DNA of 4,814 nt, taken from the IMG/VR virus record IMGVR_UViG_2671180986_000010. The stretch is one strand, 5' to 3'. The position numbers were made by a program, and so were the translations under genes. Under the pieces are notes generated by a model. It ran no database searches, was not told the DNA's origin, and was given only the letters and a program-made list of their open reading frames with translations. This document shows positions 402 through 4,814 of the stretch, piece after piece. Numbering within the stretch: position 1 is the first letter of the stretch; each line of letters opens with the position of its first letter. Origin of the DNA: a virus. Its lineage: Duplodnaviria > Heunggongvirae > Uroviricota > Caudoviricetes.

Positions 402-454
402 TTTATCGCGCAGTGACATCATTTTTTAATAATAGTTCAAAAAAAGGGCTCACG

Positions 455-1560
455 ATGAAAAAATTAACAGTGGCAATTTCTGCTGTAGCTGCATCAGTAC
501 TGATGGCGATGTCTGCTCAGGCAGCTGAAATTTATAATNNNNNNNNNNNNNNNNNNNNNNNNNNNNNNNTAACAAGCTGGATCTGTACGGGAAAGTTAAT
601 GCTAAGCACTACTTCTCCTCTAATGATGCAGATGATGGTGATACTACTTATGCCCGTCTTGGCTTCAAAGGTGAAACCCAAATCAACGATCAACTGACTG
701 GTTTCGGTCAGTGGGAATATGAATTCAAAGGCAACCGCGCTGAATCTCAAGGTTCCTCCAAAGATAAAACCCGTCTTGCCTTCGCTGGCCTGAAATTCGG
801 TGACTACGGCTCCATCGATTACGGCCGTAACTACGGTGTAGCATACGACATCGGTGCGTGGACTGACGTCCTGCCAGAATTCGGTGGTGACACTTGGACT
901 CAAACAGATGTGTTCATGACTGGTCGCACCACTGGTGTTGCAACTTATCGTAACAACGACTTCTTTGGTCTGGTTGATGGTCTGAACTTTGCTGCTCAGT
1001 ATCAGGGTAAAAATGACCGCACTGACGTAACTGAAGCTAATGGTGATGGTTTCGGTTTCTCCACTACTTATGAGTATGAAGGATTCGGTGTAGGTGCAAC
1101 CTATGCTAAATCTGACCGCACTAATAATCAGGTTATCTACGGTAACAACAGCCTGAATGCATCTGGTCAAAATGCTGAAGTATGGGCAGCTGGTCTGAAA
1201 TATGATGCGAACAACATCTATCTGGCTACCACCTATTCTGAAACCCAGAACATGACTGTTTTTGGTAATAACCATATTGCCAACAAAGCACAAAACTTCG
1301 AAGTAGTTGCACAATATCAGTTCGACTTCGGTCTGCGTCCGTCCGTTGCTTACCTGCAATCTAAAGGAAAAGACTTGGGTGCGTGGGGTGATCAGGACCT
1401 GGTTGAATATATTGATGTAGGTGCAACCTATTACTTCAACAAAAATATGTCCACTTTTGTTGATTACAAAATCAACCTGATTGATAAGAGCGATTTCACG
1501 AAAGCATCTGGCGTTGCTACCGATGATATCGTTGCTGTAGGTATGGTTTACCAGTTCTAA
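455..1560 (+). CDS. nmpC: OmpC/OmpF-family general porin, NmpC/OmpD-like (prophage-borne), interrupted by a 31-nt N-run with a frame change across it
   Basis: N-terminus [28 protein letters not shown] is a typical porin signal peptide plus mature start. After the N-run: [17 protein letters not shown]...[18 protein letters not shown]...PEFGG...[23 protein letters not shown]...AYLQSKGK...[21 protein letters not shown]...VAVGMVYQF with the terminal Phe typical of porins. AAGGG lies 6 nt upstream of the ATG. Start frame (455) and downstream frame (571 onward) differ by one base across the N-run; stop TAA at 1558-1560. Confidence 0.85.
539..569. other. 31-nt N-run inside the porin coding sequence
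   Basis: n at 539-569. Flanking codons AEIYN (ends 538) and NKLDLYGKV (starts 571) are in different frames. Confidence 0.99.
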
Positions 1561-1748: not shown

Positions 1749-2132
1749 TTAATTAGAGTTATTAACAACGATATCCATCTCTAACCGGATATCTAATGCC
1801 ATTAACATCCCTTCAATTATGCCCTCAGCCTTCTGTAACCTTTTCCCGATATAACCATCAGAGCAGCAATGCTTACCTGCCAGTGACATGAATGTCATAC
1901 CGACTACATAATAATCTACTAATAAATCGTGCAAATCGCTGTTGTTCTTTTTCAGACGGGCCATGCACCCGCAAATAATCATCGCGTCATCGTCACAACA
2001 TTGCGGGCGAGATTTTACTTTTGAAGTAATTAATCCCTTAAAACCGGCGGCAATGGACGACCAGGTCACATCTTCATGATTATTAGCCGCCCACGCTCCC
2101 CAACGCTCAAGAACCATCTGAATATCACGCAT
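1749..2132 (-). CDS. quuD: Phage late-gene antitermination protein Q (QuuD-like, lambdoid prophage)
   Basis: Translation [26 protein letters not shown]...[20 protein letters not shown]...[14 protein letters not shown]...NNSN (127 aa), a Cys-rich Q-type antiterminator I recognise as QuuD-like. ATG at 2132 is preceded by GGAG at appropriate spacing; the ORF track extends to a TTG at 2147, which I consider less likely. Confidence 0.85.
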
Positions 2133-2217
2133 CAACTTACTCCACAAAAATCAGACCAGAACGCCAATTACAAGCAAAAATCAACAAAACAGTATTAGTT
2201 GATTGTTATCTCTGACT

Positions 2218-2358
2218 TCATACTCCTGCTCCTGTCAGGGTTTTGGCGTAATTCTTCAGTATTCGGTAATCGGTCAAAACAGAACCGGGGAAACGATATA
2301 AGCGCAGATGCCCCCAGCGGTGGCGAAGAAGTTCTGCCATATAAAACTCAAACATCAT
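2218..2358 (-). CDS. ylcG: Small nin-region protein YlcG-like (46 aa), below the ORF-track length cutoff
   Basis: Hand translation of the minus strand: [46 protein letters not shown], stop TGA at 2220-2218. The start ATG overlaps the rusA stop (ATGA-type overlap). Sits between rusA and Q as in DLP12. Confidence 0.6.
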
Positions 2359-2717
2359 TCATTCCCCATTTCGGTGATGGTCAGTTCCAGCCTCCCACCT
2401 TTGGTAACAGGCATCTTCACAACGCGGTAATCAACGACCTGAGCATCATCCAGCCAGAAACCTGCTTTGGTGAGTGCGTCAAAAGCGGCTTTTTGCAGAT
2501 TATCCAGGTCACGGCGACGGCGATCCGGCATGTGGCACTCAATACGGATTTTCACTGGCATAGCCAGGCCGATATCCAGCATTGCGTTTTTAATGATTCG
2601 GGTGACGTTATCGCGGTATGCCTGCCCTTCTGCGCTGATGTGTGTGCGCCCGCGATTATGGCGGTAATAGCGGTTATTGCTCGGAGGCCAGGGTAATGTG
2701 ATGCTGTAGGTATTCAC
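2355..2717 (-). CDS. rusA: Crossover-junction endodeoxyribonuclease RusA (Holliday junction resolvase)
   Basis: 120-aa translation [38 protein letters not shown]...[48 protein letters not shown] matches RusA as I recall it, including the acidic catalytic region. Confidence 0.9.
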
Positions 2718-3004
2718 GCCTTAATAACCCCCTCTTTCAGCCAGATAACCTGCGTTCTCGCCATACCTTCCAGCGCGCATTCTTTTGCATACTCAGCATC
2801 GACAAAATATGTGCGGCGGTCGATTTCGTCGTGACAGGCAGAACATGCAATGGTGGCAATCAGGTCTGGCGGTTTGATACCGGTACCGCACAATCCAGCC
2901 AGCCGGATATGTGCCAGTACTGACGTTTCAGGATTGCCATTACATACGCCAGGGATTCTTACCTGGCATTCCCGACCACGCGCTGCTTTTCTCAAATCAG
3001 CCAT
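2714..3004 (-). CDS. ybcO: YbcO-like nin-region protein (DUF1364, putative Zn-binding nuclease)
   Basis: Translation [64 protein letters not shown]... (96 aa) with Cys/His cluster. Strong SD AAGGAGG 5 nt upstream of the ATG at 3004. The ORF track start at 3043 would overlap ninE in another frame and lacks an SD. Stop overlaps the rusA start (ATGA). Confidence 0.8.
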
Positions 3005-3167
3005 GATTCCTCCTTGCTGCCAGTCGCAACCATTTTTTATCAACCAGGCTAGCGGTATATCCGAGCAGTGTTGGTATTTCGGATGGCTTCAGCTCAGGCT
3101 TACGCTTACGACGATTTGATACTCTGTAGATGTGCCCGTTCATGACACGAATAAGCGGTGTAGCCAT
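2997..3167 (-). CDS. ninE: NinE-family small protein (56 aa), below the ORF-track length cutoff
   Basis: Hand translation: [56 protein letters not shown], stop TGA at 2999-2997. The ATG at 3167 overlaps the ybcN stop (TAATG). Position between the ninB-like gene and ybcO matches lambdoid nin-region order. Confidence 0.7.
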   Translation of the reverse strand: MATPLIRVMNGHIYRVSNRRKRKPELKPSEIPTLLGYTASLVDKKWLRLAARRNHG

Positions 3168-3622
3168 TACGCCTCCTGCTTATCGCGCAGCTGCTGGTAT
3201 TCACAGCTCTGCGGAATTGTCAGGTGGCAGCCGATATTCATCGCCCAGGCTTCGACTTTGCACAGGAAGATGTACATCTCGCCGGTTTCCAGCTCTGACG
3301 TATGGCGGAGGGATTGGACGGTGGTGACCTCGCCGGACACGACATCTACACGGTCTTTGCTTTCGTAGCCGAGATAGGTGTGCTTCATCGCGTCTTTGAC
3401 CCACTCAGGCGTAGCGAAGGTCTTGCCGCGGGCGATGAGATATTCGCTGATCTCCGTGTACCACATGTGGCTGAGCGCGTTCTGCGACAGGCTGCGCTTC
3501 TCGCGCCACGGCTTAACCTGCAGGCGTAAGCATTGCCCGGCATCCAGCAATGGCTGAATCTGCTGGCCGATGGCCGCGAAGTTACCGCGATGGAGTTTGA
3601 TGCCGTCTACTGGCAGAGTCAT
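3167..3622 (-). CDS. ybcN: NinB/YbcN-family protein (DLP12 YbcN-like; recombination / DNA base-flipping protein)
   Basis: 151-aa translation MTLPVDGIKLHRGNFAAIGQQIQPLLDAGQCLRLQVKPWREKRSLSQNALSHMWYTEISEYL... recognised as YbcN-like. GGGAGG SD upstream of the ATG at 3622. First gene of the minus-strand coupled operon in this window. Confidence 0.8.
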   Translation of the reverse strand: MTLPVDGIKLHRGNFAAIGQQIQPLLDAGQCLRLQVKPWREKRSLSQNALSHMWYTEISEYLIARGKTFATPEWVKDAMKHTYLGYESKDRVDVVSGEVTTVQSLRHTSELETGEMYIFLCKVEAWAMNIGCHLTIPQSCEYQQLRDKQEA

Positions 3623-3648
3623 ACGGCCTCCCTAACGGAAACCGCAGA

Positions 3649-3678
3649 ATGCAGAAAATCGCAGGTGCATTTCTGCAT
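3649..3678. promoter_or_regulatory. 9-bp perfect inverted repeat ATGCAGAAA-N12-TTTCTGCAT, 27 nt upstream of ybcN; operator-like or tR2-like terminator candidate
   Basis: Read directly: 3649-3657 is the reverse complement of 3670-3678. Lies between the AT-rich cassette and the nin operon, where lambda carries tR2 upstream of ninB. Confidence 0.3.
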
Positions 3679-3710
3679 CTGTGACAAGGTGATGAGTTCA
3701 GATTGTGGTC

Positions 3711-3732
3711 GCATTTAAGTCCCCTTAAATGC
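3711..3732. promoter_or_regulatory. Hairpin GCATTTAAG-tccc-CTTAAATGC (9-bp stem, 4-nt loop)
   Basis: Perfect inverted repeat read directly; no strong U-tract on either side, so terminator function is uncertain. Confidence 0.3.
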
Positions 3733-3821
3733 GCAGAAGTCACCGGAGTTGTTCAGGCTCCGATGAGAGGATTATGGCGGATTGATTACGATAAATCAAA
3801 ACTATCTTGAAGCCAAAACAG

Positions 3822-3850
3822 TGATCTTCGCTTTAAAAACCTTGTATACT
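3822..3850 (+). promoter_or_regulatory. Weak candidate promoter for the two-gene cassette (TGATCT, 17-nt spacer, TATACT)
   Basis: -10-like TATACT at 3845-3850 with a poor -35; TSS would be about 30 nt upstream of the ATG at 3887. Motif only. Confidence 0.2.
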
Positions 3851-3886
3851 TTCACCTAATCACAGCCAGAACTATGGATCTAACCA

Positions 3887-4264
3887 ATGACCAACAAAGA
3901 AAACAAAGATAAATATATTAACAAGTTCAAGAAAGAGCTTTCAAAATATATACAACCAACTGCTGGAGTGGACATTCAATTATTTAACTCTAAGGATGGT
4001 GGTGGTGTAATTAAAGCCACTTTGAATAGAAGTGGAAAAAGAAAATCATCTATTGCTGGTAATTTTACTAAATTAGGTGAGGCAATTACCTCGAGTGGGC
4101 AGAGGGTTTTTGGTGGTGATCTATCAAATGTGAATTTTTACGGAACAAATACGATTTTTGATGGAGATACAATATTTTTAATTAAATCACCTGATTCAGA
4201 GGAGTGGTCATCACAAAAAGCTTCCAAAGACGTAGAGGGCATCGTATTTGGAGGGAAAAAATGA
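3887..4264 (+). CDS. Hypothetical soluble protein (125 aa), Lys-rich N-terminus, Gly-rich motifs; first gene of AT-rich two-gene cassette
   Basis: ORF MTNKENKDKYINKFKKELSKYIQ...NSKDGGGVIKATLNRSGKRKSS...VFGGDLSNVNFYGTNTIFDGDTIFLIKSPDSEEW...IVFGGKK. No hydrophobic segment and no family recognised. Weak SD. Stop TGA overlaps the ATG of the next gene (ATGA). Confidence 0.6.
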   Translation: MTNKENKDKYINKFKKELSKYIQPTAGVDIQLFNSKDGGGVIKATLNRSGKRKSSIAGNFTKLGEAITSSGQRVFGGDLSNVNFYGTNTIFDGDTIFLIKSPDSEEWSSQKASKDVEGIVFGGKK

Positions 4265-4689
4265 TTAACATTACTACTAAGGATGGCACTCAAGTCAGTG
4301 GTGAAGTAAGAGATCTAGTAATTCTTCTTGAAACTGATGGAAAAACGGTGTCTGATTATTTGCAGCCAATCCCTCCCAAAAAAGATACACACTGGAGCAT
4401 GATTTTCATTCCGGTAGCAATTTATATACTACTTAATCTTGTATACATTATTGCTCACCCATTATTTCCTGAAAAATATCTAAAAACATCAACATCTATA
4501 TTTCTATTCATTTCCTTCATATTAAGTGCAATAGTAGCATATTTTGTTTTCCATAAGCATAAATCTGCCACTCTATCCATATGCAGCTTAGTGTTCTTAG
4601 TGTTAATTGTAGGTGCTAACGTAGGGTTTATCAGTTACAGCGACCTAACACAAAAAGCGACGCAAAAATTAGATAGTTTGTCTAAATAA
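4261..4689 (+). CDS. Hypothetical small membrane protein (142 aa): about 45-aa N-terminal soluble domain plus three predicted TM helices
   Basis: GGAGGG SD 6 nt upstream of the ATG at 4261 (the track's GTG start at 4204 lies inside the upstream gene). Hydrophobic stretches SMIFIPVAIYILLNLVYIIAHPLF, SIFLFISFILSAIVAYFVF and LSICSLVFLVLIVGANVGFISY. Low-GC codon usage. Confidence 0.65.
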   Translation: MINITTKDGTQVSGEVRDLVILLETDGKTVSDYLQPIPPKKDTHWSMIFIPVAIYILLNLVYIIAHPLFPEKYLKTSTSIFLFISFILSAIVAYFVFHKHKSATLSICSLVFLVLIVGANVGFISYSDLTQKATQKLDSLSK

Positions 4690-4696
4690 TTATGTT

Positions 4697-4717
4697 GCCA
4701 TGCGAAGTATGCATGGC
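4697..4717 (+). terminator. Hairpin GCCATGC-gaagtat-GCATGGC just after the cassette stop; weak terminator candidate
   Basis: 7-bp inverted repeat 8 nt after the TAA at 4687-4689, but no clear U-tract follows. Confidence 0.2.
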
Positions 4718-4814
4718 TGCATGTCTGCCTTCCATTTAAAATGGGCTAAGACCTATAACCCTAAATATTATTCTTTATTATCTTCTTTACCACTTCGGTG
4801 ATGCTGCCAACTTA

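Follow-up and report, generated by a model that had tools for sequence, protein, structure and literature searches.

A coupled soluble and membrane protein gene pair at the P/nin junction of a DLP12-like prophage belongs to a widespread mobile two-gene family with a possible role in phage exclusion

The 4,814-nt stretch of viral DNA analysed here (IMG/VR virus record IMGVR_UViG_2671180986_000010), hereafter the window, carries two overlapping plus-strand genes, A and B, which encode a soluble protein and a predicted inner-membrane protein. We found that the A-B pair is no enterobacterial orphan and that it represents a large, widespread and unnamed two-gene family, co-inherited across bacterial phyla and carried by mobile elements. 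A first-pass annotation of the window had taken the pair as a local oddity, which the profile searches described below contradict, and had interpreted it as a sensor-plus-effector module for defence or exclusion. Our analysis bears out a self-contained accessory cassette of two unrecognised proteins; the defence part of that interpretation has circumstantial support, and the sensor and effector labels are best regarded as putative. Judging from the sequences, we tentatively favour a regulator and membrane-effector module for phage exclusion or abortive infection, to which we give a little under an even chance.

The features of the window are listed in Table 1. Two open reading frames (ORFs) of 125 and 142 amino acids (aa) were confirmed at the coordinates first assigned to them, and the same coding sequences are annotated in the E. 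coli A7 RefSeq genome as WP_000182282.1 (A) and WP_000608370.1 (B). The ATGA overlap between the two genes and the GGAGGG Shine-Dalgarno sequence of the second, both reported in the first-pass annotation, were read in the sequence, and the overlap suggests that A and B are translationally coupled. The G+C (GC) content and its value at third codon positions (GC3) were 0.341 and 0.26 for gene A, and 0.336 and 0.28 for gene B. The A protein contains 17 Lys and 15 Gly residues, has an isoelectric point of 9.5 and holds no hydrophobic segment (highest 19-residue Kyte-Doolittle mean 0.43), in agreement with its earlier description as soluble and Lys/Gly-rich. The B protein was likewise correctly described as a short soluble N-terminal domain followed by three hydrophobic helices. 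Its 19-residue Kyte-Doolittle peaks reach 2.49, 2.52 and 2.41, and in its AlphaFold model a hairpin and a short helix precede long helices at residues 44-68, 71-100 and 103-141. Residues 1-36 are mostly invariant among the enteric homologues. The loop between the second and third transmembrane (TM) helices, KHK in the enteric protein and RFK in its relatives, is the most positively charged short loop, and B is therefore predicted to adopt an N-in, C-out topology with its N-terminal domain in the cytoplasm.

Both genes are under purifying selection, with ratios of nonsynonymous to synonymous substitution (dN/dS) of about 0.03-0.17. The values were 0.05-0.15 for A and 0.03-0.17 for B across the four closest pairs, and between E. 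coli and Klebsiella they were 0.08 and 0.09, respectively. The low dN/dS between E. coli and Klebsiella, together with homologous pairs in dozens of unrelated genomes, indicates that A and B are real genes and not chance ORFs.

As the first-pass annotation had stated, neither protein belongs to a recognised family. Scans of A against Pfam, NCBIfam and PADLOC gave no significant match, and none was obtained with the Pfam HTH, RHH and AbrB models. The same three collections returned nothing significant for B, the only matches being sub-threshold ones driven by its TM helices. Full-length matches were found to two PHROGs of 'unknown function', 18061 for A (E 9e-85) and 16940 for B (E 2e-96). The enteric proteins are thus already catalogued, only as 'hypothetical protein' and as unknown-function PHROGs, and these PHROGs cover the close enteric versions and neither the pairing nor the wider family. 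The RefSeq accessions of A and B had no match in the full-text collection searched. The DefensePredictor supplements contain neither the accessions nor A/B peptides, a metagenomic-selection preprint does not list the peptides in its supplements, and a preprint on defence in mobile integrons described no matching cassette. No description of the pair was found in the literature searched, which did not cover Brenes & Laub 2025 (E. coli prophage defence systems).

To define the wider family, we built a profile from nine enteric A proteins and ran it against 1.84 billion cluster representatives. The results showed 111 matching representatives at E <= 1e-3, 30 of them at E <= 1e-10. Family members are nearly all 120-135 aa long, align end to end, and share conserved positions at Y10, G39, F84-x-G86-T87, I99-K100, W107 and D115. 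The family matched no Pfam model, and a sequence-profile search of the PDB gave only noise (E > 0.05). A B homologue was present directly 3' of A at every locus with readable downstream DNA (about 40 loci). The pair was kept in all four distant relatives looked up by protein, in 10 of 10 genome loci holding an A gene with readable downstream DNA, and in 21 of 21 metagenome loci that extend far enough downstream; it was also present on one IMG/VR phage contig. The genome loci come from Nitrospira, Neptuniibacter, Nitrosomonas, Salinisphaerales, Syntrophaceae, Myxococcales, Mariniflexile (Bacteroidota) and others, and span Nitrospira, the Gamma-, Beta- and Deltaproteobacteria, Myxococcales and Bacteroidota. 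Gene A always comes first, and among these distant homologues the 4-nt ATGA overlap recurs in 9 of 11 genome loci and in most metagenome loci. Four A relatives (P0083, P0116, P0132 and P0136) carry N-terminal extensions of 85-110 aa that matched no Pfam model.

The distant B proteins are 124-137 aa long and consist of a polar N-terminus of about 35 aa and two to three hydrophobic peaks (hydropathy threshold 1.6), with the RFK loop before the last. Enteric and distant B proteins gave no significant pairwise BLASTP match, and we therefore compared them profile to profile. With hhalign, enteric B aligned to 24 distant B proteins over residues 8-135 with a probability of 97.4% (E 1.1e-11). The N-terminal domain, the RFK/KHK loop and TM3 are conserved across the family, and the N-terminal domain follows the motif MK.G..EGT.EE...F...NGL...DY..KP. 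Pairwise identities of A and B are correlated (r = 0.85, 21 pairs), indicating that the two genes have been co-inherited without shuffling. The Nitrospira and Neptuniibacter pairs, although from different phyla, are almost the same (dN 0.04-0.05, dS 0.5-0.7), which indicates recent horizontal transfer. At one locus of a betaproteobacterial metagenome-assembled genome (L025, 6998-7843), A carries a frameshift after residue ~85, next to an intact B that reads into a longer C-terminus; the frameshift may be an assembly error or genuine decay.

The pair was found on several types of mobile element. Three loci (L011, L012 and L029) belong to another phage with integrase, lysozyme, holin and terminase genes. 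In a further locus (L015), the pair at 5075-5835 is exactly one integron cassette, bounded by attC-like repeats of ~140 nt at 4919-5058 and 5833-5972 that end in GCCTAAC...GTTAGGC and recur between every cassette of the array. The definition of an integron gene cassette, one or more ORFs between attC recombination sites (RYYYAAC...GTTRRRY), applies to the distant homologue in L015 only, and the window copy is prophage cargo. The L015 array, a chromosomal integron at 1694-5972, also holds cassettes for BrnA, Gp49/HTH, two GNAT acetyltransferases, AHSA1 and Ymh, as well as one insertion sequence (IS). Locus L008 is an island located after smc-zipA-ligA and includes an Xre-MbcA/ParS antitoxin gene. 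Directly downstream of the pair in this island (6875-8255) are two genes encoding proteins of 212 and 220 aa with no recorded Pfam match, in each of which a hydrophobic stretch at the N-terminus and a long helical, charged region were seen by eye, both proteins staying under the hydropathy threshold; these genes may be further island cargo. At other loci, integrase, resolvase, transposase, ORF6N-type and nucleotidyltransferase genes were recognised by eye among translated ORFs.

We then compared the neighbours of the pair with PADLOC-DB v2.0.0 (2023), which holds models of known and candidate defence systems. Defence or candidate defence genes lie within ~3 kb of the pair in 4 of 11 genome loci: a PDC-M14A-like gene directly downstream together with a DrmD-like SNF2 helicase (E 9e-204) in L018, a full-length PDC-M49A (E 3e-275) in L022, PDC-S45 (E 8e-114) in L023 and PDC-S22 (E 2e-119) in L027. 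Further neighbour matches, not tied to a particular locus, were to PD-Lambda-3_B, PDC-S05 and PDC-S09. This association is no more than suggestive. One A relative of 447 aa (P0104) combines an A domain (residues 7-119) with an HNH nuclease domain (191-231, Pfam E 1.3e-12) and a C-terminal region of ~200 aa of no known type, a fusion that fits A as a regulatory or sensor domain that could be coupled to different effectors. Strict pairing, mobile carriage, the PADLOC neighbours and the HNH fusion together provide circumstantial support for a defence role.

Close homologues (63-100% identity) are restricted to E. coli, Shigella, Enterobacter and Klebsiella. The cassette is present in 46 of 5426 complete E. 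coli genomes, about 2600 of which hold the ybcN flank, and in 18 IMG/VR contigs. A species-representative genome set, which would include the enteric species, yielded no locus with the enteric A profile, and blastn/tblastn searches of A, B and one distant A against INPHARED phages and PLSDB plasmids gave nothing. All six Klebsiella/Enterobacter (Klebsiella-type) prophage loci, which differ in their replication, nin and Q modules, keep the pair, in each case in antisense orientation to the early operon and with the replication/ead genes on one side and the first nin gene on the other. At the DNA level, the E. coli and Klebsiella cassettes are homologous (72% identity) over 3886-4704 only, and their flanks are unrelated. 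In E. coli CV839-06 (NZ_CP025753.1), an IS1A is inserted within the stretch matching window positions 3700-4814, and the match is split by the IS1 transposase.

The position of the pair had been described as one where phages carry accessory 'moron' genes, and comparison of gene content at this junction confirmed this: the K-12 DLP12 prophage carries emrE-ylcJ-ybcK-ybcL-ybcM-ylcH at the cassette site, and lambda carries only ren. The differences among DLP12, lambda and the cassette carriers identify the P/nin junction as a variable cargo site. Two features of a moron, deviant base composition and presence/absence polymorphism, were both found, as the cassette has a GC content of 34% against 51-58% in its flanks (the AT-richness relative to the nin genes had been noted before), its carriage is patchy and the cargo differs. 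Homology with cassette-free DLP12-like prophages stops near 3801, and the region upstream of the Klebsiella cassette is unrelated to the E. coli one.

A possible course of action can be outlined for the favoured exclusion or abortive-infection module. A and B would be expressed in the lysogen and made together through translational coupling, and B would insert in the inner membrane with its conserved N-terminal domain (~40 residues) facing the cytoplasm, where A may bind or control B through this domain. A superinfecting phage might perturb A, or A might sense a phage cue, and B would then be released or activated at the membrane. Activated B could depolarise the membrane through an ion leak, leading to abortive infection, or could block DNA entry, and competing phages would be excluded from the lysogen. 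The placement of the cassette antisense to the pR early operon may also allow N-antiterminated transcription to dampen it during the induction of its own prophage.

Several observations weigh against this reading. No homology of A or B to any validated defence protein was found, and neither matched PADLOC-DB v2.0.0 at E <= 1. When 115 A/B family members were scanned against PADLOC, the strongest matches were nuclease models, attributed to the HNH part of P0104, and four other isolated matches had E values of 0.002-0.009. The AlphaFold models of A and B had predicted local distance difference test (pLDDT) scores of 58 and 68 and gave generic structure matches, to helical bundles in the case of B; these models were built on shallow enteric alignments, which makes the structure searches uninformative. 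The association with defence neighbours is modest and stands without a measured background rate, and several of the matches are to candidate (PDC) models or generic SNF2/ABC ATPase domains. Many loci lie beside ordinary housekeeping genes, such as smc-zipA-ligA in L008, or metabolic genes, and the HNH fusion is a single representative. The intact B beside a frameshifted A in L025 is awkward if A must restrain B. The plus strand of 3623-3886 gave no match to the sigma-70 consensus, and the sole promoter-like element upstream of A is a weak TATACT at 3845-3850 with a poor -35. The hairpin after B folds at -16.6 kcal/mol on the plus strand and -14.9 kcal/mol on the minus strand (z ~ -2.6) and has no U-tract. 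It is not a canonical intrinsic terminator and may mark the transcript end or form a barrier in both directions; in the Klebsiella cassette, a 15-bp hairpin with a T-run on the minus strand occupies the equivalent place.

An alternative that we consider unlikely is an addiction (toxin-antitoxin-like) module, in which B would be a membrane toxin and A an antitoxin encoded first and made at a fixed ratio, stabilising the prophage, integron array or island that harbours them with no dedicated anti-phage role. Protein toxin-antitoxin operons typically show this gene order and a 4-nt overlap, and the overlapping K-12 genes for SdhE/CptB and YgfX/CptA offer a possible analogy, but the pair shows no homology to SdhE/YgfX, and A has no DNA-binding domain recognisable by Pfam for autoregulation. 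The surroundings fit such a module at some loci, with the BrnA and Gp49/HTH toxin-antitoxin-type cassettes in the L015 array, a nucleotidyltransferase-type antitoxin gene nearby in L018 and L035, and the Xre-MbcA/ParS antitoxin gene near the pair in L008; the survival of an intact B next to a broken A in L025 speaks against it. This explanation overlaps with the favoured one, since toxin-antitoxin function and abortive-infection defence are not mutually exclusive.

It also seems improbable that the pair serves a non-defence accessory membrane function (lysogenic conversion, stress, envelope or transport), with B as a small membrane adaptor and A as its cytosolic partner. A function useful to hosts in many habitats would account for horizontal spread, the DLP12 site and its neighbours do hold non-defence cargo (emrE, ybcL and ybcM in K-12; porin and iss/bor in E. 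coli A7), housekeeping or metabolic genes surround several distant loci, and similarity to known defence proteins is lacking. However, carriage in E. coli is patchy and the enteric profile found nothing in the species-representative set, the near-identical Nitrospira and Neptuniibacter copies fit conflict or mobile-element genes better, and the integron-cassette and prophage contexts and the A-HNH fusion point the same way. Very improbable is a lysis-timing accessory serving the lytic cycle of the carrier phage, with B holin- or antiholin-like and A its regulator: B is small with three TM helices like class I holins, and in L011, L012 and L029 lysozyme and holin genes are found a few kb downstream of the pair and share its strand. 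But in the window and all six Klebsiella-type prophages the lysis cassette is distant from the pair, early and late transcription run opposite to it, and a holin, an endolysin and spanins are encoded elsewhere in those prophages. The pair is also present in non-phage surroundings (integron cassette, chromosomal islands), and the predicted topology and folded N-terminal domain of B are unlike lambda S. We rejected B as a class I holin on the lack of a Pfam holin match and on the distance of ~4-5 kb between the cassette and the essD-rrrD-rz lysis genes of the E. coli A7 prophage, which lie on the other strand.

If the favoured exclusion or abortive-infection reading is correct, the cassette would add a two-gene system that is very compact (~0.8 kb) and homologous to none so far known, carried by prophages of clinically relevant E. 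coli, Shigella, Enterobacter and Klebsiella and by environmental bacteria of several phyla. Two protein families would be new, one with a soluble fold and the other a three-helix membrane effector whose cytoplasmic docking domain is conserved, and the P/nin junction of lambdoid prophages would be worth mining as a cargo site beside the known P2/P4 hotspots. A bolder and more doubtful proposal is that A-B is the founding example of a new anti-phage family across phyla, in which a cytosolic sensor of ~125 aa would gate a three-helix effector through its N-terminal domain, the sensor would be modular, as in the HNH fusion, and the whole of ~0.8 kb would move as one integron cassette or moron. Should the pair instead be a toxin-antitoxin system, it would be of an unusual kind, with a multi-pass membrane toxin under the control of a protein. 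The family alignments, together with the conserved-pair rule, suffice to build a detection model and to choose constructs.

Pfam assignments and a near-identical annotated region of E. coli A7 showed that the window is part of a DLP12-like lambdoid prophage. In E. coli A7 this prophage occupies the argU (tRNA-Arg) site and seems complete, extending from int through the head genes. The gene pair is located between P and the YbcN/NinB-like gene and is thus antisense to the early-right operon; YbcN barely exceeds the cut-off of the NinB Pfam model (24.0 bits against 23.8). The pair had been placed directly upstream of and opposite the NinB-like gene. The opposite orientation holds, but the ylcH-like ORF intervenes, and the cassette is therefore not strictly adjacent to ybcN. 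In E. coli A7, P, an O-like replication gene, ydaT and an HTH gene separate the cassette from an XRE-family repressor gene ~2.7 kb away.

Table 1. Features of the window, with A-B cassette elements and flanking prophage genes (+, plus strand; -, minus strand;., no strand assigned)
Feature	Position	Strand	Remarks
Prophage porin gene	413-1560	+	OmpC/NmpC-type; partly masked by N runs
quuD	1749-2147	-	Pfam/annotation
ylcG			Between quuD and rusA in gene order
rusA	2355-2717	-	GC 0.523
ybcO	2714-3043	-	GC 0.509
ninE			Between ybcO and ybcN in gene order
ybcN, NinB-like	3167-3622	-	GC 0.577
ylcH-like ORF	3619-3714	-	31 aa, MRPQSELITLSQMQKCTCDFLHSAVSVREAV; overlaps start of ybcN by 4 nt
Intergenic region upstream of A	3623-3886	+	264 bp, 44% GC; expected promoter place; two hairpins and the ylcH-like ORF lie here on the minus strand
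Gene A	3887-4264	+	125 aa, soluble, basic; ORF read
GGAGGG Shine-Dalgarno for gene B	4250-4255	+	Inside 3' end of gene A; 5 nt to ATG
ATGA start/stop overlap	4261-4264	+	ATG 4261-4263 over TGA 4262-4264
Gene B	4261-4689	+	142 aa, predicted inner-membrane protein; counted from ATG at 4261
B residues 1-42	4261-4386	+	Conserved polar N-terminal domain (predicted beta-hairpin and short helix); alignment and low-confidence model
B residues 44-126	4390-4638	+	Three TM helices (~44-68, 77-98, 105-126); Kyte-Doolittle and AlphaFold
Hairpin directly 3' of B stop	4691-4723	.	GCCATGC...GCATGGC core; inverted repeat 4692-4722
Replication gene P, 3' end	stop near 4768	-	

Other features of the window and its prophage were also recorded. 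Runs of N occupy 116-365 (250 bases) and 539-569 (31 bases), the second inside the 5' part of the porin gene. This gene is annotated as 'porin OmpC' in E. coli A7 and corresponds to the IS5-disrupted nmpC in K-12; it lies on the strand opposite quuD and, like the A-B cassette, is accessory cargo transcribed against the phage operons. The ylcH-like ORF is at the position of K-12 ylcH, is unannotated in E. coli A7 and is called 'hypothetical protein' in other genomes. Upstream of ylcH/ybcN are two minus-strand hairpins, at 3642-3678 and 3710-3733 (-16.7 and -13.8 kcal/mol, z near -3 for both), the first followed by a U-rich stretch. They are at the place of lambda tR2 and may be an early-operon terminator overridden by N antitermination. 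An Rfam scan of the whole window found no family. In the immunity region of the E. coli A7 prophage (L001, 16525-18173), a two-gene accessory pair of ImmA/IrrE metallopeptidase and DUF4411 genes adjoins the XRE-family repressor gene, and related Klebsiella prophages carry BstA (KilA-N and BstA_C), an NYN-domain gene or a ParA-like gene at this place.

Finally, we compared the pair with known systems. RexAB is also prophage-encoded and consists of a soluble and a small inner-membrane protein, RexB (144 aa) being close to B (142 aa) in size. It is expressed independently of the lytic genes. According to the classical model, infection is aborted when the soluble partner activates a membrane channel and the cell is depolarised. 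Membership was rejected, as hhalign gave 0.6% for the B family (28 sequences) against lambda RexB and 0.04% for the A family (81 sequences) against RexA. Moreover, RexA is 279 aa long whereas A has 125 aa, rexA and rexB lack the ATGA overlap of A-B, and RexB is described with four TM helices whereas B has three. Lambda rexAB adjoins cI in the immunity region, co-transcribed with the repressor, whereas the cassette lies between P and ybcN. CptAB of E. coli, described as a type IV toxin-antitoxin pair, shares the layout: in K-12 the gene for soluble SdhE/CptB comes first and overlaps the start of the gene for inner-membrane YgfX/CptA (~135 aa). Membership was again rejected (hhalign 0.1% and 0.2%); YgfX, described with two TM helices, belongs to the chromosomal core and is not mobile, and SdhE has a separate housekeeping role as a flavin adenine dinucleotide (FAD) assembly factor. 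Small inner-membrane exclusion proteins that phages or prophages encode in accessory genes, such as HK97 gp15, T4 Imm and P22 SieA, act at the membrane against incoming phage DNA. These act alone, whereas B has a strictly conserved soluble partner and the pair also occurs outside phages; the Pfam and PHROG annotations of A and B show no homology to them. Mycobacteriophage Butters gp30/gp31 is a prophage-expressed pair of a cytoplasmic and a multi-pass membrane protein that excludes heterotypic phages; it works in other hosts, its reported TM number and gene order differ, and the likeness is one of analogy only. Taken together, the A-B architecture resembles those of RexAB, CptAB and Butters gp30/gp31 without detected homology, and the cassette appears to rest on two new protein families.

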